Assembly: GCA_002791035.1 (NCBI GenBank)
Contig: PFWG01000009.1
Span: forward strand, 1 to 36,998
Source of the DNA: Candidatus Portnoybacteria bacterium CG_4_9_14_3_um_filter_43_11
GTDB lineage: Bacteria > Patescibacteriota > Minisyncoccia > Portnoybacterales > UBA2143
Reading direction: 5' to 3'
DNA length: 36,998 nt
This document shows, one piece after another, positions 16,403 to 28,475 of the stretch; the stretch's first letter is position 1, and every line of letters begins with the position of its first letter. Under the pieces are notes generated by a model, which saw nothing but the letters and a program-made list of their open reading frames with translations, ran no database searches and was not told where the DNA came from. A program made the position numbers and the translations under genes.

Positions 16403-17350
16403 CTAATACATTTCAATGGGTCTGTTTTTAAAATCCCTGAACCGGACCGGGCTGAATTTCCAAAAATCCAAGGGTAGAGGAATTTTACCGAAGCCGTTGG
16501 GCGTATCAATCAAGTGGAAGGGGAAAGCGATGCCGGAAATATTTTTTCTCAATTTGGTCATAATCCTGATTTCTTTTTCAATCGGGACGATGAAATGTTC
16601 GGCCCCTTTAACCAGGTCGCAGTGATAGATATAGTAGGGCCTGATGCCCAAGTTGCTTAATTCGGTAAAAAGTTTTTTCAAAACAGAATAGGAATCGTTA
16701 ACGCCCTTCAAGAAAACCGACTGGGAAAGAAGAATGACCCCGGTTTGCCTAAGCGCTTCAAGCGCTTTGATGGTCTGAGGCGTAAATTCATCCGGGTGCT
16801 CAAAATGGACGCTTAAATAAAGCGGCTTTTTTTTGTTGATTTTTTTAAATAAACAGAGAATATCCTTGGTTATCAAGCCGGGTCGAGAAACCGGCACGCG
16901 GGTATGAAGGCGTAATTTCTTGATTTGCGGCAAAACAAGTATTTTATTCAGCGTGGTTGTCAGCAGGCGCGGAACAGTCAGGGGGTCGCCGCCCGAGAAG
17001 ACGGCTTCGTTAATTTCGGGGCGGCTTTTGAGATAATCAATTATTTTTTTGATATCAGCGGGGTAAATTTTGCCCTTTTTGATGTCCGAAACCATTCGAC
17101 GCCGAGTGCAAAAACGGCAGTAAGAAGCGCAATTCATGGTCAACTCTATTAATACCCGGTGCGGATATTTATGGACCAGACCCTTTGTTTTCCGATAAAT
17201 ATCCTCCAAGAGAGGATCTGTTAGAGCTTTTTTAGAAACAATGTTTTCTTTCGGCGAAGGGAAAAATTGTTTCTTTACCGCCGGCGATTTTTGGGCCAGT
17301 TTTTTCAGATGGCGGCTGATTTTAACGAGCATTTTTTCTCTTTTCGGCAA
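16403..17350 (-). CDS. KamA-family radical SAM aminomutase (lysine 2,3-aminomutase / EpmB-like)
   Basis: Contains the CxxxCxxC cluster CASYCRFCTRRR, FSGGDPL, and a short EpmB-like length. The start is ambiguous: TTG at 17350 or ATG at 17332 (MLVKISRH). Confidence 0.8.
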   Translation of the reverse strand: MPKREKMLVKISRHLKKLAQKSPAVKKQFFPSPKENIVSKKALTDPLLEDIYRKTKGLVHKYPHRVLIELTMNCASYCRFCTRRRMVSDIKKGKIYPADIKKIIDYLKSRPEINEAVFSGGDPLTVPRLLTTTLNKILVLPQIKKLRLHTRVPVSRPGLITKDILCLFKKINKKKPLYLSVHFEHPDEFTPQTIKALEALRQTGVILLSQSVFLKGVNDSYSVLKKLFTELSNLGIRPYYIYHCDLVKGAEHFIVPIEKEIRIMTKLRKNISGIAFPFHLIDTPNGFGKIPLPLDFWKFSPVRFRDFKNRPIEMY

Positions 17351-17352
17351 AC

Positions 17353-17380
17353 AAAAAAGAACCTGTGGTTGAGTGGTTCT
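17353..17380 (-). terminator. Hairpin plus U-run on the minus strand abutting the KamA-family ORF start
   Basis: The minus strand reads AGAACC-actcaaccaca-GGTTCT-TTTTTGT, ending 2-3 nt before the TTG at 17350. A similar hairpin (AAGAAC...GTTCTT) lies near 17423-17450. Confidence 0.45.
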
Positions 17381-17602
17381 CCGTCTTTGCTGTTAATTGG
17401 TTAATTTTATCTTGGCCGGTAAAAGAACTCTGCTGTGGCAGTGGCGGTTCTTCGCTTTGAAAGAAATAGTTTTGCGAACTGGCAGTCATTTTTTAAATCC
17501 GTTTAACTCCATTGTAATTCTTTGGTGTGTCTTGTCAACTCTGTTGGGGGTAGAATCTCTTTTAGAGATTCTACGGAGTTGAAATTGGGGATTGGTCTTC
17601 CA

Positions 17603-18526
17603 CTAGGATTTTGCCAAGTCAGAAAATAAGGTTTTAAGCCCGGCGGTATTTAACCAATAATTCTTTGGATTTTTCTTTAAGTATTTTTTGATTTCTTTTC
17701 TTTGTGTTTTTAGTTTATCGCCAGCCCTGCTGTTGGATATGAGTATATTTGAATAACTGCCGTCTAAAAAAGAGATGTAGGAAATATTTGGAGTTTTTTC
17801 CTTGAGATTTAATATTTCAATTAGTTCTGAAATCTGCTTATCTTGTCCGCCGCCGGAGGTGTTAAGATGTTTTGCTTCTATTAAAAATATCTTATTTTTA
17901 TACCTAATAATCAGGTCTAATTTTTTACCTTGCTTTTTGGCTTTAAGTTTAACTTTTAAATTTTCTTTGACTTTTTTAACGCTGAAAACCTTGGAAAATT
18001 GAGCAACGCATTTGTTTGATTTATTAAATTCTTCCCAAGTTTTAACTTCTTTAAAACCCAATTTCTTTAATATCAAGGTTAGTTTTAATTCGCCGCATTT
18101 TCCTTTCTTGCGAGAGGAATTAGAATCTATTATTGCCTGAATCCATTCTTCGGGGACGAGGTCTCTTAACAATCTTTTAGAAAAGTATCTCCGGGTAATT
18201 TTCTTTATTAAGTCCAAATCTTTTCTGACCGCGCCCAAGGTATTATCGCAGGCGTTAACGAAACAGATAAATTCGGAGCAGTTGGAAAATTCCGATAATG
18301 ATTTTTGCAATTCTTCAAAATACTTGTTGATTATTTTTGGATTTTCTTTTTTCTTTTGAAGAGTTTTAATGGTAGTTAAAATTTCCTTGATCTCTTTTGT
18401 ATTTTTGACATATTTTTTCAGATTAGGATTTTTATTGTCAAAAATATAAAAATTATCCAAAGAAGTTTCTGGATTTTCCTGCGATACTTTAAAGTAATGT
18501 TGATTGTTTTGAATGTTTTTGCTCAT
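17603..18526 (-). CDS. Putative type II restriction endonuclease (PD-(D/E)XK-like)
   Basis: It overlaps and follows the methyltransferase gene. The candidate catalytic pattern is GEL...KKLDLIIRYKNKIFLIEAKH (D...ExK). The gene is very AT-rich and lysine-rich. Confidence 0.55.
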   Translation of the reverse strand: MSKNIQNNQHYFKVSQENPETSLDNFYIFDNKNPNLKKYVKNTKEIKEILTTIKTLQKKKENPKIINKYFEELQKSLSEFSNCSEFICFVNACDNTLGAVRKDLDLIKKITRRYFSKRLLRDLVPEEWIQAIIDSNSSRKKGKCGELKLTLILKKLGFKEVKTWEEFNKSNKCVAQFSKVFSVKKVKENLKVKLKAKKQGKKLDLIIRYKNKIFLIEAKHLNTSGGGQDKQISELIEILNLKEKTPNISYISFLDGSYSNILISNSRAGDKLKTQRKEIKKYLKKNPKNYWLNTAGLKTLFSDLAKS

Positions 18527-19628
18527 AGAGATAATTCAAAAATTTATAGGTAAAATCAAACGAAATTCTTTTGCGGCCGTTATCGCGGAAATTAGTGAGA
18601 AAAAATGAAAAATATTTTTTTCTGTTTTGGTTTAACTTCTGGTTGAATTCCTGTATTAGTTTTTCCTGCTCTTCCACGGGAATTCCCTGGCCGAAAATTA
18701 TATGGGCCATATTTCGAGAAGTATTTTTACCAACAAGCCCTAAAATATTATATCTTCTTATATCTTCAAGTTGTATCTTTTTTCCGTTCTTGCTGTCAAT
18801 GGCTCTTAAGAGCAAGATATTTCTTTCTAAAATATTTCTAACATTTCCATGGATATTATAATTTCTTATTTCCTTTATATTTTGAAACGCCATTTTAGCT
18901 CCATAACTTCCAGATTTCAGAAAATCTTCAGTCAGGCGGAAAATTTCTAAATAATTTTTAGCGCTTTTTATCTGATTAATAAAATTGCCGCCTAACTGCC
19001 AGCCGAATTTTCTTTCTATAGCAAAATTGATTTTTTCTTTTTCTGGGAATATGGCAGCTGATATTTTGTTTTTACCATCAAATCCTTTTTTCTTCTTGTA
19101 ATAAAAAGAAATTACATTATAGGTCGTATCTTTAAAAACTTGTTGGGAAAAAACATTTAACTTAATAATCTTAAACTTTTCAAAAAATAGGTTCCTGATT
19201 TTTTTTGAATTTTCGGCGCAAAGAAAATTTAGAGGAACAATTAAAATTCCTTCTTCGGAATCAAGAATTGAATAGATAGAAACTTGATATAGGTCTTCGA
19301 AAAAGGAGTGTGTGCCGGAAAAGAAATTATCTTTTGTTTTTCCATCGGCTTTATTCTTATGCAGATATGGCGGATTGGTTAAAACAAATTTATATTTCTT
19401 CGGAGAATTGATAGAGTCGTTGTAAAAAACCTTTTTGTTGTCGGTATATTTTTTATCACAGTCAAAGCCGGTGATTTTTTTACATTTATTTTTGCTAGCC
19501 CAACTAAACAAATCCTGATTTCCGGCGAATGGATCAGTAATTTCTTTATTCTTTACGAATGATTCTAGCCCTTGGAGAATATAGTCGGAATTTGTAGTAA
19601 AGAATTGTCCGAGTTGGGCTTTGGTCAT
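18489..19628 (-). CDS. N6-adenine DNA methyltransferase (gamma-type motif order)
   Basis: The motif order is LGQFFTT (motif X-like), then DPFAGNQDL (motif I), then LTNPPY (motif IV). Confidence 0.85.
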   Translation of the reverse strand: MTKAQLGQFFTTNSDYILQGLESFVKNKEITDPFAGNQDLFSWASKNKCKKITGFDCDKKYTDNKKVFYNDSINSPKKYKFVLTNPPYLHKNKADGKTKDNFFSGTHSFFEDLYQVSIYSILDSEEGILIVPLNFLCAENSKKIRNLFFEKFKIIKLNVFSQQVFKDTTYNVISFYYKKKKGFDGKNKISAAIFPEKEKINFAIERKFGWQLGGNFINQIKSAKNYLEIFRLTEDFLKSGSYGAKMAFQNIKEIRNYNIHGNVRNILERNILLLRAIDSKNGKKIQLEDIRRYNILGLVGKNTSRNMAHIIFGQGIPVEEQEKLIQEFNQKLNQNRKKYFSFFLTNFRDNGRKRISFDFTYKFLNYLYEQKHSKQSTLL

Positions 19629-19634
19629 ATCTTT

Positions 19635-19640
19635 ATTATA
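19635..19640 (-). promoter_or_regulatory. Candidate -10 box (TATAAT) 6 nt upstream of the methyltransferase ATG
   Basis: The minus strand reads ctagTATAATaaagatATGacc, with no room for an SD sequence. Confidence 0.4.
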
Positions 19641-19664
19641 CTAGAAAATAGAAATTTTGATAAG

Positions 19665-19692
19665 AAAAAACCGATGCATTAGATCGGTTTTT
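19665..19692. terminator. Bidirectional intrinsic terminator-like hairpin
   Basis: AAAAAA-CCGAT-gcattag-ATCGG-TTTTT lies between the 19715-20251 ORF and the R-M operon. Confidence 0.6.
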
Positions 19693-19714
19693 CTACTTTT
19701 GTTTTAATGGGATG

Positions 19715-20251
19715 TCAATGTTTGTGATTTGCTATAACTTTTCTGAAATCTTTTTTTAATTGTTTTTTTATATTTGGTAATTTGTTTTCGATTTCTTGAA
19801 ATGCTTTATTCCATTGTTGAAAGGAAGTATCTTGGTCTTTTATTGATTGCGACATAATTGATGCTTCTAGATTGCTTAAAATTTGAAGCGAACTATCAAT
19901 AAAAGAATGAATCATTAAAACTGAACTTTTGTCTAGAATTATTTCTTTCTCCCAAAAATAATCTTGTAGACCGAAAAATTTTGTTTTTATCAAGGGGAAT
20001 TCATTTATTTTTTCAGATAAAGATCCCTGATTGGTCTTTGCGCCAATTGTTCTGCTATATTTTTTAAAATCTTTCTCAAGAGCAACGATCTTGCTGTATA
20101 TTTCTTCCAAATAAACAAGTTTTCTATCAAAGATTTTTTCAAATGTATATCTTCTTTGAGAAAAGTAGTATGTCAGAACTGCGGTTAAGAGAATACCAAG
20201 TAATGAGATAACGCTTTGTATAAAACTTGGACCAGATAAGAAATCTTTCAT
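19715..20251 (-). CDS. Hypothetical membrane-anchored coiled-coil protein
   Basis: One N-terminal TM segment (VISLLGILLTAVLTYYF) and a helical remainder. The gene is AT-rich. I recognise no family. Confidence 0.5.
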   Translation of the reverse strand: MKDFLSGPSFIQSVISLLGILLTAVLTYYFSQRRYTFEKIFDRKLVYLEEIYSKIVALEKDFKKYSRTIGAKTNQGSLSEKINEFPLIKTKFFGLQDYFWEKEIILDKSSVLMIHSFIDSSLQILSNLEASIMSQSIKDQDTSFQQWNKAFQEIENKLPNIKKQLKKDFRKVIANHKH

Positions 20252-20300
20252 AGATTGTGTCGTAGAACAAATAACAATACTTTATCTAAATGTGGATATT

Positions 20301-20376
20301 TGGCGGGGACGATGGGAATCGAACCCACGATCTCCTGCGTGACAGGCAGGCGCTTTAACCGCTAAGCTACGCCCCC
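20301..20376 (-). tRNA. tRNA-Asp (GUC), CCA encoded
   Basis: The reverse complement folds as GGGGGCG-UA-GCUU..AAGC-G-CCUGC-CUGUCAC-GCAGG-AGAUC-GUGGG-UUCGAUU-CCCAU-CGUCCCC-G-CCA. The anticodon is GUC. Confidence 0.9.
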
Positions 20377-20380
20377 AAAG

Positions 20381-20454
20381 TAGCGGCGACAGGATTCGAA
20401 CCTGTGACATCGGGCTTATGAGTCCCGCGCTCTAACCAACTGAGCTACGCCGCC
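20381..20454 (-). tRNA. tRNA with CAU anticodon (elongator Met or Ile2), no encoded CCA
   Basis: The reverse complement folds as GGCGGCG-UA-GCUC..GAGC-G-CGGGA-CUCAUAA-GCCCG-AUGUC-ACAGG-UUCGAAU-CCUGU-CGCCGCU-A. It has a G1-U72 wobble and an A31/G39 mismatch. Confidence 0.8.
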
Positions 20455-20455
20455 A

Positions 20456-21145
20456 TCATTTTATTTTTAAATTAGATATTCCTTCAATCCAGCCGTCTAT
20501 TTTTCTTCTTAGTCGAGTTCCTTTCCGGACTTTTATTCTTAGGGTTCCAAAATGTTCGTTATAGTTTTCGTAAATTTTTTTTGTTTCTGTCTTTTTTAAA
20601 CTTGGTTTATTGAACTGCGATAGGGGAATCTCCGTAAGATCGGACCAATATTTTTCTACTTCCTTTACTCTTTTTTTATGAATCTTGTTAATTCCCACTC
20701 TAAGAGAAAACCTATCGATGCTTATTTTGCAACAATTTTTGAACCATTCGAGCATAAAAAGAATCATTTTCGGATCTGAATTAGTAAATCCAACGTCATA
20801 ATTAGACGGAGCAGTATATCCTTCACTCCAATACATTGCTATTCCAGCAACAAGTAAATCTCTTTTATTAAGTTTATCGATTTCTTTAATGCCCTCTTTT
20901 CTTAATAACTCTACTTCCGTTTGTCTTTTTTGTCTTATTTTTTCTACCGCCCTTAATCTTCCTTCGTAACTTCCGGATATTTGTTTTTCCACTAATCGTT
21001 TAATCTGAGTATGCGAAAGTGGTATATCTCTACACCATACGCTAACAGTGCCCTTAGAGATATTTATCTTTTGAGCAATTTCATTGATACTCAATCCTCT
21101 TTTGCGTAACTTTTGCGCTTTAGTCTGTTCCTCTATCTTCGCCAT
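20456..21145 (-). CDS. HTH domain protein with a LAGLIDADG-like C-terminal domain (putative free-standing homing endonuclease or maturase-like)
   Basis: The N-terminal HTH is RGLSINEIAQKINISKGTVSVW. LLVAGIAMYWSEGY resembles a single LAGLIDADG motif. The gene is AT-rich and sandwiched between tRNA genes. Confidence 0.5.
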   Translation of the reverse strand: MAKIEEQTKAQKLRKRGLSINEIAQKINISKGTVSVWCRDIPLSHTQIKRLVEKQISGSYEGRLRAVEKIRQKRQTEVELLRKEGIKEIDKLNKRDLLVAGIAMYWSEGYTAPSNYDVGFTNSDPKMILFMLEWFKNCCKISIDRFSLRVGINKIHKKRVKEVEKYWSDLTEIPLSQFNKPSLKKTETKKIYENYNEHFGTLRIKVRKGTRLRRKIDGWIEGISNLKIK

Positions 21146-21197
21146 TTTAGAACCTTATATTATTAGGCACATTAACATTATATATGAGGTTCTAAAA
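21145..21197. promoter_or_regulatory. 16-bp inverted repeat overlapping the start of the HTH-LAGLIDADG-like ORF (candidate operator or tRNA terminator)
   Basis: TTTTAGAACCTTATAT (21145-21160) pairs with ATATATGAGGTTCTAAAA, specifically 21182-21197, with one G-T pair and a 21-nt loop. The loop contains TATATAAT on the minus strand. Confidence 0.45.
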
Positions 21198-21235
21198 TTT
21201 ATCAACCGTTAAATTGCGGAGAACTTTGATACTTG

Positions 21236-21515
21236 TTGCGGGGGTCGGATTCGAACCGACGACCTCGAGGTTCTTAATATTAGCCATTTGTTGCCAAATG
21301 GAATGGACTGTCCCATTCTCTCGCTAATTTAACGAGAGATTCCCATTACAGTCTCTGAACCTTTCCCGTAGTTAATACGGGACTTGGCTGCTGATTGTCG
21401 TAAATATATCTTTACGAGTTCCCAGCAAGTTCGGGAATTTTTCCGCAGAATGTCGCCATCCTGGGCCACAATCATTTTATGGGCCTCGCGAGCTGCCAGA
21501 CTGCTCTACCCCGCG
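21236..21515 (-). tRNA. Initiator tRNA-fMet (CAU) gene interrupted by a group I intron; exons 21479-21515 and 21236-21272
   Basis: The joined exons give CGCGGGG-UA-GAGC-AGUCUGGCA-GCUC-G-CGAGG-CCCAUAA-CCUCG-AGGUC-GUCGG-UUCGAAU-CCGAC-CCCCGCA-A (74 nt). This is nearly colinear with E. coli tRNA-fMet, including the C1xA72 mismatch. Confidence 0.85.
21273..21478 (-). ncRNA. Group I intron (206 nt, no ORF) inserted after the CAU anticodon
   Basis: The 5' exon ends in U and can pair as CCAU with the internal guide GUGG 9 nt into the intron, giving a U-G wobble at the splice site. The intron ends in G. Core-like strings CAAUCAGCAGCCAAGUCCCG and GGUUCAGAGACUGUAAUGGGAA resemble the conserved P/Q and J8/7-P7 regions of tRNA group I introns. 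Size and insertion site resemble the Azoarcus tRNA-Ile intron. Confidence 0.75.
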
Positions 21516-21520
21516 CTGGT

Positions 21521-21549
21521 ATTATAGCCGAAAGTTTCAGAGATATCAA
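21521..21549 (-). promoter_or_regulatory. Sigma70-type promoter of the tRNA-fMet gene (TTGATA-17 nt-TATAAT)
   Basis: The minus strand reads TTGATAtctctgaaactttcggcTATAATaccag followed by tRNA position 1. The -10 box ends 5 nt before the mature 5' end. Confidence 0.6.
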
Positions 21550-21614
21550 GCCCTTTGGGGCGTCAGAGAGGACTTGTCTTTCAACCGCCGTTATAGTAAA
21601 ATAGAAACATAAAG

Positions 21615-22004
21615 ATGAATTTATCCGGATATTTAGCGGGATTAGTTTTAGTGGTCTTTTTAGCCATCGCCTGCTTGACGGCTATTTTAGTTTATTTCAG
21701 TCCCCAGACCTCCAGCGCTGGCGTCTTTTCTCTGTTTTATCTGGCGCTTCTGATTTCGGCGGCGGGGATATTTACTTTAATCGGATTTTTTATTCGGCAG
21801 ATTTCAAGAAAAAAAAGGATTCCTTTGTCCCAAGGACAGGTTGTCCGCAATCTGGAGGTTTCTTTCCGGCAGGGTTTTCTTTTATCAATAATTTTGGTTT
21901 CGGTTTTAATCCTTCAAAGCCAGCGATTGCTTTACTGGTGGGATCTGGCGGCTTTGGTCGGGCTGGTCGGTCTGGCTGAATGGTGGCTGATGAAAAGGCA
22001 ATAG
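21615..22004 (+). CDS. Hypothetical integral membrane protein (about 4 TM)
   Basis: 129 aa and strongly hydrophobic (LVLVVFLAIACLTAILVYF, LFYLALLISAAGIFTLIGFFI and others). It lies immediately upstream of pheS. Confidence 0.6.
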   Translation: MNLSGYLAGLVLVVFLAIACLTAILVYFSPQTSSAGVFSLFYLALLISAAGIFTLIGFFIRQISRKKRIPLSQGQVVRNLEVSFRQGFLLSIILVSVLILQSQRLLYWWDLAALVGLVGLAEWWLMKRQ

Positions 22005-22008
22005 TAAT

Positions 22009-23070
22009 ATGCTTAATCAACTCAAACAAAACGCGTTGAAAGAGATCGCGGCGACCAAAGAACTCAAGGGCTTGGACGCGGTTTACCGCCGCTATTTGGG
22101 CCGGAAGGGAGAATTGACCAAGGTTTTGCGTTCGCTTAAGGACTTATCCGAAAAAGAACGGAAAGAAACGGGGACGGCGGCCAATGAAATCAAACGGGGA
22201 TTGGAAGAAGCGGTTGGAGAGAAGCGCCGAGAGTTTTTGGCGCCGAGCGGGAAAACCCCGTCTTTATCCCGCTTCGGCGGGACGAGCGGGAAAACCCCGC
22301 CGAGCGGGGTAAATTGGCTTGATGTTACCGCGCCCGGCGTCAAGCCGGCGGTGGGTCATTTGCATCCAATTACCTTGGTCCAAAGGCAAGTTGAAGATAT
22401 TTTCCAATCAATGGGTTTTTCGGTCGTTGACGGTCCGGAAGTGGAAACTGAATACTACAACTTTGACGCTTTAAATATTCCCCCAGGCCATCCGGCTAGG
22501 GATGTATTATCTCTTGGAAGGACTTTTTACTTAAAAAAAGGAGGATTAATGAGGAGTCATACTTCTCCTATGCAAATTCGTTATATGGAGAAACATAATC
22601 CTCCTATTAGGATGATTGTTCCCGGAAAAGTTTTTCGAGTAGAAGCCACCGATTCTTCTCATGAGACAAATTTTTATCAACTTGAGGGGTTAATGATCGG
22701 AAAAGACGTTTCAGTGGCTAATTTTAAAGCAGTAATCCAGGAATTTTTGGAAAATTTCTTCAAAAAATCTATTAAGGTTAAATTAAGACCTTCTTATTTT
22801 CCTTTTGTCGAACCGGGTTTTGAAATAGACATGAGTTGCACTATGTGTGTCGGTAAAGGATGTGCTGCTTGTAAATATTCTGGCTGGATAGAGATGATGG
22901 GAGCTGGAATGATACACCCTAAAGTTTTGAAATCTGGCGGTTTAGATCCAAAAAAATGGCAAGGTTTTGCCTTTGGAATGTCGCTGGATAGGTTAACAAT
23001 GATAAAGTATAGGATTAATGATATTCGTTTATTCCACAGTGGAGATTTAAGATTTCTTCAACAATTCTAA
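22009..23070 (+). CDS. pheS: Phenylalanyl-tRNA synthetase alpha subunit, compositionally mosaic
   Basis: Contains an N-terminal coiled coil, DVTAPG, GHLHPIT, HPARD, SHTSPMQIRYM, FRVEATDSSHETNFYQLEGL, YFPFVEPGFEI and GFAFGMSLDRL. Confidence 0.93.
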   Translation: MLNQLKQNALKEIAATKELKGLDAVYRRYLGRKGELTKVLRSLKDLSEKERKETGTAANEIKRGLEEAVGEKRREFLAPSGKTPSLSRFGGTSGKTPPSGVNWLDVTAPGVKPAVGHLHPITLVQRQVEDIFQSMGFSVVDGPEVETEYYNFDALNIPPGHPARDVLSLGRTFYLKKGGLMRSHTSPMQIRYMEKHNPPIRMIVPGKVFRVEATDSSHETNFYQLEGLMIGKDVSVANFKAVIQEFLENFFKKSIKVKLRPSYFPFVEPGFEIDMSCTMCVGKGCAACKYSGWIEMMGAGMIHPKVLKSGGLDPKKWQGFAFGMSLDRLTMIKYRINDIRLFHSGDLRFLQQF

Positions 23071-23133
23071 TTTTTATTAAACAAAACTCAAAAGGTCGAA
23101 TCCTAAATAATTTAAAAATTAAATATTAATTAA

Positions 23134-23286
23134 ATGAATACAATATCTCAAAAACCTAAAATATTAAAGAAAAATTCGGCTAAAAAACATCCAGAATTTG
23201 GTTTCTGTTTTAGAGGACACGGCGGAAAATCATTAAAGCGAAAGAAAAGCTTAACTGAAAAAATTTTAAAAAAGGTTAATAAGTAG
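23134..23286 (+). CDS. Unannotated 50-codon ORF, candidate RiPP precursor peptide (very basic, single Cys in an aromatic patch)
   Basis: Hand translation gives MNTISQKPKILKKNSAKKHPEFGFCFRGHGGKSLKRKKSLTEKILKKVNK. It is the only ATG-initiated ORF I found on the + strand filling the pheS to radical SAM gap, and it ends 21 nt before the radical SAM start. It is below the ORF-track length cutoff. No SD sequence is present. Confidence 0.4.
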   Translation: MNTISQKPKILKKNSAKKHPEFGFCFRGHGGKSLKRKKSLTEKILKKVNK

Positions 23287-23307
23287 ATAGAATTCCTCCC
23301 ATAGACA

Positions 23308-24573
23308 ATGAAAAATAATTTAGTCAAAATTCGTAAAGAAACGGATTATTATCTGGCGTATTTTAATGAATTAAGAAAACTGATCCCTGTTAATTATATC
23401 GGCTCGATAATCATTGATAGTTTCTTTAATAAAAGGTTTTCTATCCGGGAAATTCAAAATTTCATCAGACAAAACGGCAGAAGATATAATCTTTCGTCAA
23501 AAGATATTCAAATCTTTCTTCGACAAATCCAAGACGAACTTATTTTAGCGCCCCGGGGGAATGTTCGTTTATATCAAAGGGAATTGAGCGCTCCAATAGC
23601 GGTTGAAATTGAGATAACTACCCGATGTAATTTAAGGTGTAAGCATTGTTGTATTAAGAAATATGATAAATTGATGTCAATCAATAGAATTGAACGCATT
23701 TTTAAATTATTAAATGAAAAAAGAGTTTTTGAAATTAGCTTAGCCGGAGGAGAGCCCTTTGTTCATCCTCAAATTCTAGATATTCTTTCGTTATGTGAAC
23801 AATATAACTTCGCTACAATTATAACGACTAACGCTACACTCTTGAGCGAGTCTTTAATTAAAAGATTGGCTGAATTTAAAAATTTGGCTTTCGTCGTAAG
23901 CTTAGAAGGGATTGATAGGACTAACGACATAATCAGAGGGAGGGGCGTTTTCAAAAAAGTAGACCAGGCCGTTAGAAACCTTAAAAAAAACGGTATCTAT
24001 GTTGAAATATCTTCGACAATTACCGAGGAAAACATAGACCGCTGTCGAGAATTAGTGGAATATACTAAGTCCTTAGATATCTTTTGTAATTTCAATTTAT
24101 TTAAACCCTTTAAGAAAGATCATAAACCGTATATTCTTGGGCCCAATAAATATTTTAAATTTATAGAAGATCTATTTGAGGAAAGGAATTTTTCTGGGGC
24201 AAAAGTTAATTTGCCAAACGCCGGGGCTATTTTCGCTTATTTAGAAGGACAAGAAAAATGTAATGAGTGTTATGCGATTATGTGTGCTTTTACGATTGAT
24301 GTGGAAGGGAGTATAGTCCCTTGTCCCGCTCTTCAATCCGCCGGTTATTATGATGAAATCTTCTTGCCGAAATTCGAGGAAAATTTTATAGATATTTGGA
24401 AGAATAATCGACATTTTCAAGATTTTCGCAAAGGAAATTTAAGAGAATGTCGAGCGCGTTCATATATATTCAATAGGAATATAAAAAGGAATGATCCTTA
24501 TGGGATAACTGCTTTTCTGAGATACCAAAAAGCGAAAAGTCAAGAAGTAAAAAATAAGCTACTTAATTCTTAA
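23308..24573 (+). CDS. Radical SAM enzyme with an N-terminal PqqD-like RRE and a C-terminal SPASM/twitch-like Cys cluster (RiPP maturase-like)
   Basis: The CxxxCxxC cluster is TTRCNLRCKHCC and the GGE motif is LAGGEPF. The first ~85 residues (VKIRKETDYYLAYFNELRKLIPVNYIGSIIIDSFFNKRFSIREIQNFIRQ...SKDIQIFLRQIQDELIL) match the PqqD/RRE pattern. The C-terminal Cys pattern is CNECYAIMC-x7-GSIVPC ... C. Confidence 0.85.
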   Translation: MKNNLVKIRKETDYYLAYFNELRKLIPVNYIGSIIIDSFFNKRFSIREIQNFIRQNGRRYNLSSKDIQIFLRQIQDELILAPRGNVRLYQRELSAPIAVEIEITTRCNLRCKHCCIKKYDKLMSINRIERIFKLLNEKRVFEISLAGGEPFVHPQILDILSLCEQYNFATIITTNATLLSESLIKRLAEFKNLAFVVSLEGIDRTNDIIRGRGVFKKVDQAVRNLKKNGIYVEISSTITEENIDRCRELVEYTKSLDIFCNFNLFKPFKKDHKPYILGPNKYFKFIEDLFEERNFSGAKVNLPNAGAIFAYLEGQEKCNECYAIMCAFTIDVEGSIVPCPALQSAGYYDEIFLPKFEENFIDIWKNNRHFQDFRKGNLRECRARSYIFNRNIKRNDPYGITAFLRYQKAKSQEVKNKLLNS

Positions 24574-24583
24574 TAAATAATAT

Positions 24584-28475
<3,892 letters not shown>

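Follow-up and report, generated by a model that had tools for sequence, protein, structure and literature searches.

A mosaic pheS gene and an adjoining peptide-modification cassette, probably acquired by homologous recombination in a Patescibacteria genome

Introduction

In the genome of the groundwater organism Candidatus Portnoybacteria bacterium CG_4_9_14_3_um_filter_43_11, the genes pheS and pheT, which encode the two subunits of the essential phenylalanyl-tRNA synthetase (PheRS), are separated by a two-gene cassette encoding a 50 amino acid (aa) basic peptide and a radical SAM (S-adenosylmethionine) enzyme with a SPASM domain. In what follows, we present evidence that a tract comprising the 3' half of pheS, this cassette and the first codons of pheT was most probably imported in one homologous-recombination event from an AT-rich member of the Patescibacteria outside the recipient's family, a reading to which we assign a probability of roughly 0.85. 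The window (the whole stretch of DNA that was analysed) is the entire 36,998-bp contig PFWG01000009.1 (C27) of a 510-kb genome in 68 contigs with a GC content of 43.5%. The relatives of the window's proteins are about 60% identical and are labelled Nealsonbacteria, Minisyncoccales and Parcubacteria, placing the organism among the Patescibacteria.

The genes run in the order membrane open reading frame (ORF), pheS, 50-aa ORF, radical SAM/SPASM gene, pheT and gyrB. The features are listed below with the evidence for each in brackets; GC3 is the GC content at third codon positions and the sister is a related locus without the cassette.

22504..24637, + strand: whole tract proposed to be imported, ~2.13 kb (two breakpoints, uniformly low GC3, cassette-less sister)
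22009..22503, + strand: native 5' part of pheS, codons 1-165, with the N-terminal coiled coil and motif 1, up to HPARD (GC3, sister identity, N-half tree)
22485..22503, + strand: left crossover zone, codons for G-HPARD (maximum chi-square, informative sites, shared identical runs)
22504..23070, + strand: probably imported 3' part of pheS, codons 166-353, with motifs 2 and 3, the LSLG insertion and the CxxC-x5-CxxC knuckle (GC3, C-half tree, indels)
23134..23286, + strand: gene for the 50-aa basic peptide, a likely precursor of a ribosomally synthesised and post-translationally modified peptide (RiPP), core PEFGFCFRGHGGK (GC 27.5%; homologous ORFs beside related radical SAM genes)
23308..24573, + strand: radical SAM/SPASM enzyme, 421 aa, a likely peptide maturase (GC 33%; Pfam domains)
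24584..24637, + strand: first 18 codons of pheT, AT-rich and divergent, probably the end of the imported tract (identity, GC3, breakpoint)
24638..26557, + strand: native remainder of pheT (85% nucleotide identity to the sister, GC3 0.526)
22009-23070, + strand: pheS as a whole, 353 codons
24584-26557, + strand: pheT as a whole
21615-22004: membrane ORF, 129 aa

Of what we take to be the three class II synthetase motifs, motif 1 (GFSVVDGP) falls in the native half of PheS, with motif 2 (FRVEATD...) and motif 3 (GFAFGMSLDRL) in the other.

Composition of the pheS-pheT region

A preliminary description of this DNA, made by eye from the sequence, had proposed that pheS switches from backbone to AT-rich codons at its HPARD motif near position 22500 and that the AT-rich composition continues through the small ORF and the radical SAM gene. 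Sliding-window analysis bears this out: GC content is 0.54-0.56 at 22100-22499, falls to 0.33 at 22500-22799, stays at 0.25-0.36 through to about 24600 and has returned to 0.50 by 24700-24999, against a genome baseline of 0.435 (mean of 500-nucleotide (nt) windows, standard deviation 0.051). The genome contains around eleven AT-rich islands of at least 1 kb, the pheS-pheT tract among them.

The shift is sharper when codon usage is considered. Across 393 long ORFs of the genome, taken as gene proxies, GC3 has a mean of 0.479 (standard deviation 0.079). Codons 1-165 of pheS have a GC3 of 0.576, at the 93rd percentile of this set, and codons 166-353 a GC3 of 0.282, at the 3rd (Fisher test on third positions, p = 2.8e-8). 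Low values persist through the peptide ORF (0.22), the radical SAM gene (0.297) and codons 1-18 of pheT (0.278), before codons 19-657 of pheT return to 0.526. The preliminary description was thus right that backbone composition is regained within pheT; it had put the distance at 100-150 nt, whereas the change comes after about 54 nt, at 24638. From the 5' to the 3' part of pheS, arginine codons pass from a CGN:AGR ratio of 9:2 to 3:7, lysine codons from an AAA:AAG ratio of 8:6 to 15:2, the leucine codon TTA rises from 3 to 9 occurrences, glycine GGC/G falls from 10 to 3 and alanine codon choice shifts as well, in keeping with the AGA/AGG, AAA and TTA preference first noted by eye.

The within-gene GC3 contrast of pheS (0.294) is the highest among 209 genome ORFs of at least 300 codons, though it is exaggerated by an 11-aa GC-rich insertion (LAPSGKTPSLS..., window 22237-22310; local GC3 0.7-0.8) that lies in the native 5' half and is absent from the sister. 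A two-segment fit on GC3 alone places the change point at codon 115 (22354). We rejected this position as the breakpoint: judged against related sequences, the junction falls at 22494-22503, and the fit is misplaced because the insertion inflates the GC3 of the first 110 codons. Codons 110-160 are of intermediate GC3, as they are in the sister.

Breakpoints defined by a sister locus

The sister is represented by two metagenome contigs (L028 and L029; 47-48% GC) encoding the PheS protein P0024. On these, pheS and pheT are separated by 1 nt and there is no cassette, in line with the spacing of 0-20 nt seen in most genomes of the family. Among 118 PheS homologues, P0024 is by far the nearest to the window protein in the N-terminal part (69% identity over residues 1-78, 89% over residues 104-165) and among the most distant in the C-terminal part (64%).

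The same break is seen in the DNA. Window and sister are 84.5% identical at the nucleotide level over the upstream ORF and 84.6% over pheS codons 100-162, reaching 96% over codons 132-161 (93% at third positions). Over codons 166-353 identity is 60.5%, with only 23-40% at third positions. In pheT, the first 54 nt are 59% identical and the sequence from nucleotide 55 onwards is 85% identical.

Applied to the similarity between window and sister, the maximum chi-square method places the left breakpoint at 22494 (p=0.0002) and the right breakpoint at 24638 (p=0.0006). In a triplet comparison in which the window was set against the sister (A) and one AT-rich contig with the cassette (B), informative sites divide 19 to 2 in favour of A in 22410-22499 and 32 to 9 in favour of B in 22500-22634, with A-type sites becoming dominant again from about 24600. 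Around the left junction, the window is nearly identical to the sister up to and including the GAT codon of HPARD and is of donor type thereafter, and it is exactly here that stretches of up to 18 identical nt are common to the sister and donor-like sequences. The HPARD junction originally proposed is therefore accurate to within about 10 nt (22494-22503). The apparent right crossover inside pheT, at around nucleotide 55, is new relative to the preliminary account.

Conflicting histories of the two PheS halves

Separate phylogenies of PheS residues 1-165 and 166-353, both unrooted, are strongly incongruent. In the N-half tree, the window protein pairs with P0024 (support 100/99) and the pair is nested within the clade of its own family (99/90). 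In the C-half tree, the family clade, P0024 included, is recovered at 99/92 with the window outside it; the window falls instead within a clade containing P0013, P0007, P0005, P0002-6, P0009/10 and P0040 (96/87, or 96/80 with added rows). In approximately unbiased (AU) tests, a grouping of the window with P0024 is rejected for the C half (difference in log-likelihood 116, p=0.0005), and a grouping of the window with the donor clade is rejected for the N half (difference 124, p=0.0006), giving a p of about 0.0005 in both directions; the clades tested were chosen after the identity tables had been seen, and the N-half result is inflated because the ten 'donor' rows do not form one clade in the N-half tree.

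The C-terminal half is 78-81% identical in amino acid sequence to P0013, P0007 and P0005. When 401 genomes sampled from the class were searched with it, the best match (72% identity, E 4e-98) came from a genome of another family (G391), the best genome of the organism's own family scoring E 7e-79.

Two indels, found from immediately after HPARD onwards, are common to the window and the donor clade and are not found in the family. The first is an LSLG insertion (22504-22515), where window and donor sequences read VLSLGRTFYLKKGG and the family reads LWDTFWLKDANL. The second is an 11-residue insertion with four cysteines, CxxC-x5-CxxC (window 22831-22878, PheS residues ~275-290). Both are common in the class and missing from the genome's own family. 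With the second insertion, the event would have given this PheS a putative metal-binding knuckle.

Breakpoints, trees and the empty sister site support the history first suggested for this locus, in which the cassette was gained by recombination through the conserved part of pheS with replacement of the 3' end of the gene; none of the observations that the preliminary description had listed as refuting it was made.

The donor side

The three nearest homologues of the radical SAM protein (72-76% identity) are encoded on AT-rich metagenome contigs (30-31% GC). On L030/L031 and L037, the order of genes is pheS, a gene for a 47-48-aa peptide (core PE[FL]GFCFRGHGGK), the radical SAM gene and pheT, as in the window. 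On L036, which encodes the closest radical SAM protein (76%), the radical SAM gene is followed by pheT. The sequence upstream of it (L036:1-263) contains no recognisable peptide gene or pheS; the locus may here be rearranged or truncated.

Identities of the PheS tail and the radical SAM protein are 76% and 75.5% between the window and L037 and 82% and 82% between L030 and L037. That the two proteins have diverged to a similar extent across cassette-bearing pairs is consistent with the 3' end of pheS having been inherited together with the cassette. The GC3 of the pheS C half in the donor clade is 0.25-0.34, the same as that of the tract (0.28), so that no amelioration is visible.

Of 59 genomes in the order, only two yielded the radical SAM gene, and the other 35 family genomes yielded none; when GTDB genome contigs were scanned with a radical SAM alignment, no match closer than 46% identity came up. 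Several candidates for the donor were considered and rejected: P0007, P0002, P0013 and P0005, where pheT follows pheS directly or after a 158-nt spacer, and G391, the best GTDB match, where the gap is taken up by an unrelated 85-aa ORF.

The peptide/radical SAM cassette

In a set of 5.8 billion proteins, the family of the radical SAM/SPASM protein has about 70 members, 38-76% identical to it and nearly all labelled Patescibacteria. Pfam matches include Radical_SAM (PF04055, 4.9e-22), Fer4_12 and SPASM (PF13186, 8e-5 and 2.2e-5). The cluster motif CNLRCKHC occupies residues 107-114, with C107, C111 and C114 invariant, and is preceded by an N-terminal extension of about 95 residues. Among solved structures, the best match is 5v1q (E 1.6e-14, with the alignment beginning at query residue 32), which we take to be the streptide maturase SuiB; SkfB and PqqE come next. 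Several family members of 38-45% identity carry a PqqD (PF05402) annotation; residues 1-101 of the window protein gave no Pfam match to this domain. None of the NCBIfam radical SAM families compared, among them WgkB, mycofactocin MftC, ScmE/F, PapB and AlbA, was matched at its cutoff: the best, WgkB, scored 106 bits against a cutoff of 650, and another 94.6 against 265.

A basic peptide ORF of 47-63 aa precedes every related radical SAM gene examined that has an upstream ORF. The peptides share an N-terminal motif, K[PT]KI[IL]KK, and a core, E[SF]G[CF]CF[RT][SG][CH]GG, and are found on L030, L032, L035, L037, L039, L052, L053 and L054. For the core (also written E[FS]G[FC]CF[RT][GS][HC]GG), neither Pfam nor NCBIfam gave a match. 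Contigs carrying this peptide family are labelled Parcubacteria, Falkowbacteria and Saccharibacteria; in the pheS-linked subclade, Phe and His stand in place of two of the three Cys residues.

The cassette is most likely a RiPP precursor/maturase pair. With the radical SAM/SPASM maturases that depend on a RiPP recognition element (RRE), of the SuiB/streptide, SkfB and PqqE type, it has in common the CxxxCxxC core, the SPASM domain, the N-terminal extension and an adjacent short peptide gene; it differs from them in scoring below every curated NCBIfam cutoff and in having no PqqD match of its own.

A possible mechanism

The course of events that we propose is a homologous (more precisely, homeologous) recombination that replaced window positions 22504-24637 with foreign DNA. 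The left crossover would have taken place in the conserved stretch of pheS coding for NIPPGHPARD and the right crossover near the start of pheT, in its first 54 nt or so, either as a double crossover or with one homologous anchor and one end joined at microhomology. The donor lineage would already have carried the cassette between pheS and pheT, the incoming DNA then bringing with it the catalytic 3' half of pheS, the precursor-peptide gene, the radical SAM/SPASM maturase gene and the first codons of pheT. The outcome would be a full-length chimeric PheS and a newly gained two-gene peptide-modification module. A search of the genome contigs shows pheS to be single-copy; as the only pheS in the genome, the chimeric gene must be functional.

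Nothing in the tract points to a mobile element. No flanking repeats were found around it, none of its ORFs matches an integrase, transposase or recombinase domain in Pfam, and a search for terminators or promoters suggestive of a mobile element gave nothing meaningful. With neither repeats nor a recombinase, site-specific insertion of an island or transposon was rejected, and a simple insertion would not account for the exchange of homologous coding sequence at both ends. RecA and ComEC are both encoded in the genome. From the lack of repeats and integrase, the homologous replacement on both sides, the crossovers in the most conserved patches and the presence of RecA and ComEC, we infer that the DNA was probably taken up by natural competence and integrated with the help of RecA.

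Competence (comEC and pili) together with retained recombination genes has been proposed as a route of gene gain in Patescibacteria, in a study that also reports horizontal transfers and genomic islands in groundwater members of the group (PMC12455944; mSystems 2025). Genetic exchange in Patescibacteria is common ground between that study and the locus described here, whose genome has both RecA and ComEC. It differs in that the study's passages on transfers and islands describe no intragenic synthetase mosaic with mapped breakpoints (PMC12455944).

Judging from the divergences of the sequences, the event would have occurred after the split from the L028 lineage (~15% nucleotide divergence) and before the spread of the present population (at most 0.3%).

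Weighing the alternatives

Besides the two reservations attached to the AU tests above, a number of points weigh against import of the tract in a single recombination event. No close donor was found, the best PheS C half being 81% identical in amino acids (~77% in nucleotides) and the best radical SAM protein 76%. The cassette is absent beside the nearest readable PheS C-half relatives (P0013, P0007, P0005 and P0002), and the PheS C half of cassette-bearing L030 is only 71% identical to that of the window, so that a donor combining both features has to be postulated; it was presumably an AT-rich lineage that has yet to be sampled. The first 18 codons of pheT match neither the sister nor the sampled donor-like sequences well, making the right boundary only approximate. 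Finally, RecA-mediated recombination across a divergence of about 25% is inefficient, and one end of the tract may have been joined illegitimately or by microhomology.

Some of these points also suit a history of two events, in which the 3' half of pheS was converted on one occasion, by recombination with a foreign pheS, and the cassette reached the space between pheS and pheT on another, by a different route. That the nearest PheS C-half relatives (81%) are cassette-less and that L030 is more distant would both be expected on such a history, and in relatives the gap does take other cargo, such as the AbiEii toxin-antitoxin pair of L002. Set against this, the AT-rich tract is contiguous, with a uniform GC3 of 0.22-0.30, the order pheS, peptide gene, radical SAM gene, pheT is kept in L030/L031 and L037 (and radical SAM gene, pheT in L036), the divergences of PheS tail and radical SAM protein track each other from pair to pair, and no repeats or mobility genes lie beside the cassette. 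We consider two separate events improbable.

There might also have been no import at all. On this account the tract is ancestral and it is the L028 lineage that lost the cassette and had the 3' half of its pheS replaced, or else the AT-richness is a product of local mutational drift. Only a single sister lineage is available for comparison and the trees are unrooted, which gives this account some room. It is the tract, however, and not the pheS of the sister, that departs from the composition of its own genome: GC3 in the sister gene is 0.47-0.63 along the second half, on contigs of 47-48% GC. The C half of the sister falls among the family, where vertical descent would place it, the radical SAM gene is missing from all 35 other family genomes and the family lacks both the LSLG and the four-cysteine indel. 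Drift, for its part, cannot create indels and residues common to another clade. A direction of transfer into this genome is the better fit, and we regard the absence of import as decidedly unlikely.

The tract is present in four independent assemblies (ENA ERZ909571, 33 kb; ENA ERZ22297208; JGI 3300004106; JGI 3300007986), derived from different samples and pipelines, whose contigs are 99.7-100% identical to the window in nucleotide sequence without rearrangement; the left junction is spanned by all four and the right junction by two. An assembly chimera, in which two co-occurring Patescibacteria were joined within conserved pheS and pheT, is conceivable: metagenome assemblers can switch strains in conserved coding sequence such as that around both junctions, and sample 3300004106 yielded both the relative L029 and this organism (L023). 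With four independently assembled contigs sharing the junctions, reading frames intact at both ends of what would have to be a repeated double mis-join, and no second pheS in the genome, it is scarcely credible.

Import of the whole tract in one recombination event is thus the history that we favour. A more speculative extension of it holds that the cassette and the catalytic half of PheS form a selected travelling unit. Either the Phe-rich peptide (core EFGFCFRG) would act on PheRS, with the accompanying PheS allele being self-protective, or the pheS and pheT flanks, being universally conserved, would serve as a 'landing pad' that allows the cassette to spread among divergent Patescibacteria without mobility genes. 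The close subclade of cassettes lies beside pheT in four of four lineages seen, with pheS upstream in all three that are readable; more distant homologues sit elsewhere. When cassette-linked PheS proteins were compared with those of cassette-less near relatives, a single residue, I273, set the carriers apart, and it is common in other PheS proteins; self-immunity of PheS appears to have no support so far from this residue search. We view the travelling unit as a long shot.

Neighbouring observations

The space between pheS and pheT is occupied in other ways in some relatives. In G031 (L002:2578-3448) it contains a DUF6922 + AbiEii toxin-antitoxin pair at 25% GC, in G391 (L041:2086-2343) an 85-aa ORF, and on L003 the spacer is 456 nt long. 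The gap looks like a recurrent insertion spot.

A second AT-rich island lies upstream in the window at 17000-21200 (29-37% GC). It contains an ORF for a DpnII/Tsp45I-like restriction enzyme, an unannotated 379-aa ORF, a 178-aa ORF, two tRNA genes and a helix-turn-helix (HTH) ORF. On the sister contig L028 (positions 1-290), the counterpart of window 20369-20456 (tRNA-Met) is followed almost at once by that of 21222-21272 and next by that of 21477-21616. The contig is without the 229-aa HTH ORF (20456-21145) and without the ~205-nt stretch 21273-21476, and so represents an empty site for both.

Comparison with known systems

Accessory loci are exchanged via flanking core genes in a number of bacterial systems, among them the pneumococcal capsule locus (dexB/aliA-side), the O-antigen loci (galF-gnd) and core-flanked integration hotspots. 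The pheS-pheT tract resembles exchange of the capsule and O-antigen type in having no mobility genes, in its crossovers in the flanks, in the replacement of parts of the flanking genes by donor alleles and in the empty site of the nearest relative. It differs in several respects: the flanking genes encode both subunits of an essential tRNA synthetase; the left crossover cuts into the gene for the catalytic one, creating a chimeric enzyme; the donor comes from another family than the recipient, and possibly from another order, with about 60% nucleotide identity within the tract; and the host has an ultra-small Patescibacteria genome.

Interspecies recombination has also produced the mosaic penicillin-binding-protein genes of Streptococcus and Neisseria and exchanged aminoacyl-tRNA synthetase genes. 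With mosaics of the penicillin-binding-protein type, pheS has in common a sharp intragenic breakpoint, a discordant phylogeny and a foreign block that keeps the composition of the donor; it differs in that no selective agent is known to act at pheS and in that the foreign block runs on into an accessory cassette. The process is therefore a known one, in which cargo is gained via conserved flanks and a mosaic housekeeping gene is left behind; it is the setting that is unusual.

Implications

The Patescibacteria, or Candidate Phyla Radiation, are not yet genetically manipulable and their routes of gene gain have so far been inferred mostly from bulk statistics. The pheS-pheT locus offers a base-level reconstruction of gene transfer in this group. 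If the history proposed here is correct, recombination in Patescibacteria would be able to cross family-level divergence, and an essential synthetase would tolerate a chimeric catalytic subunit alongside its native beta subunit. A cassette for peptide modification that lacks mobility genes could, in the same way, hitchhike on the conserved genes that flank it. For lineages such as this one, the mosaic structure of the gene also counsels caution in the use of pheS-based phylogenies and taxonomic markers.

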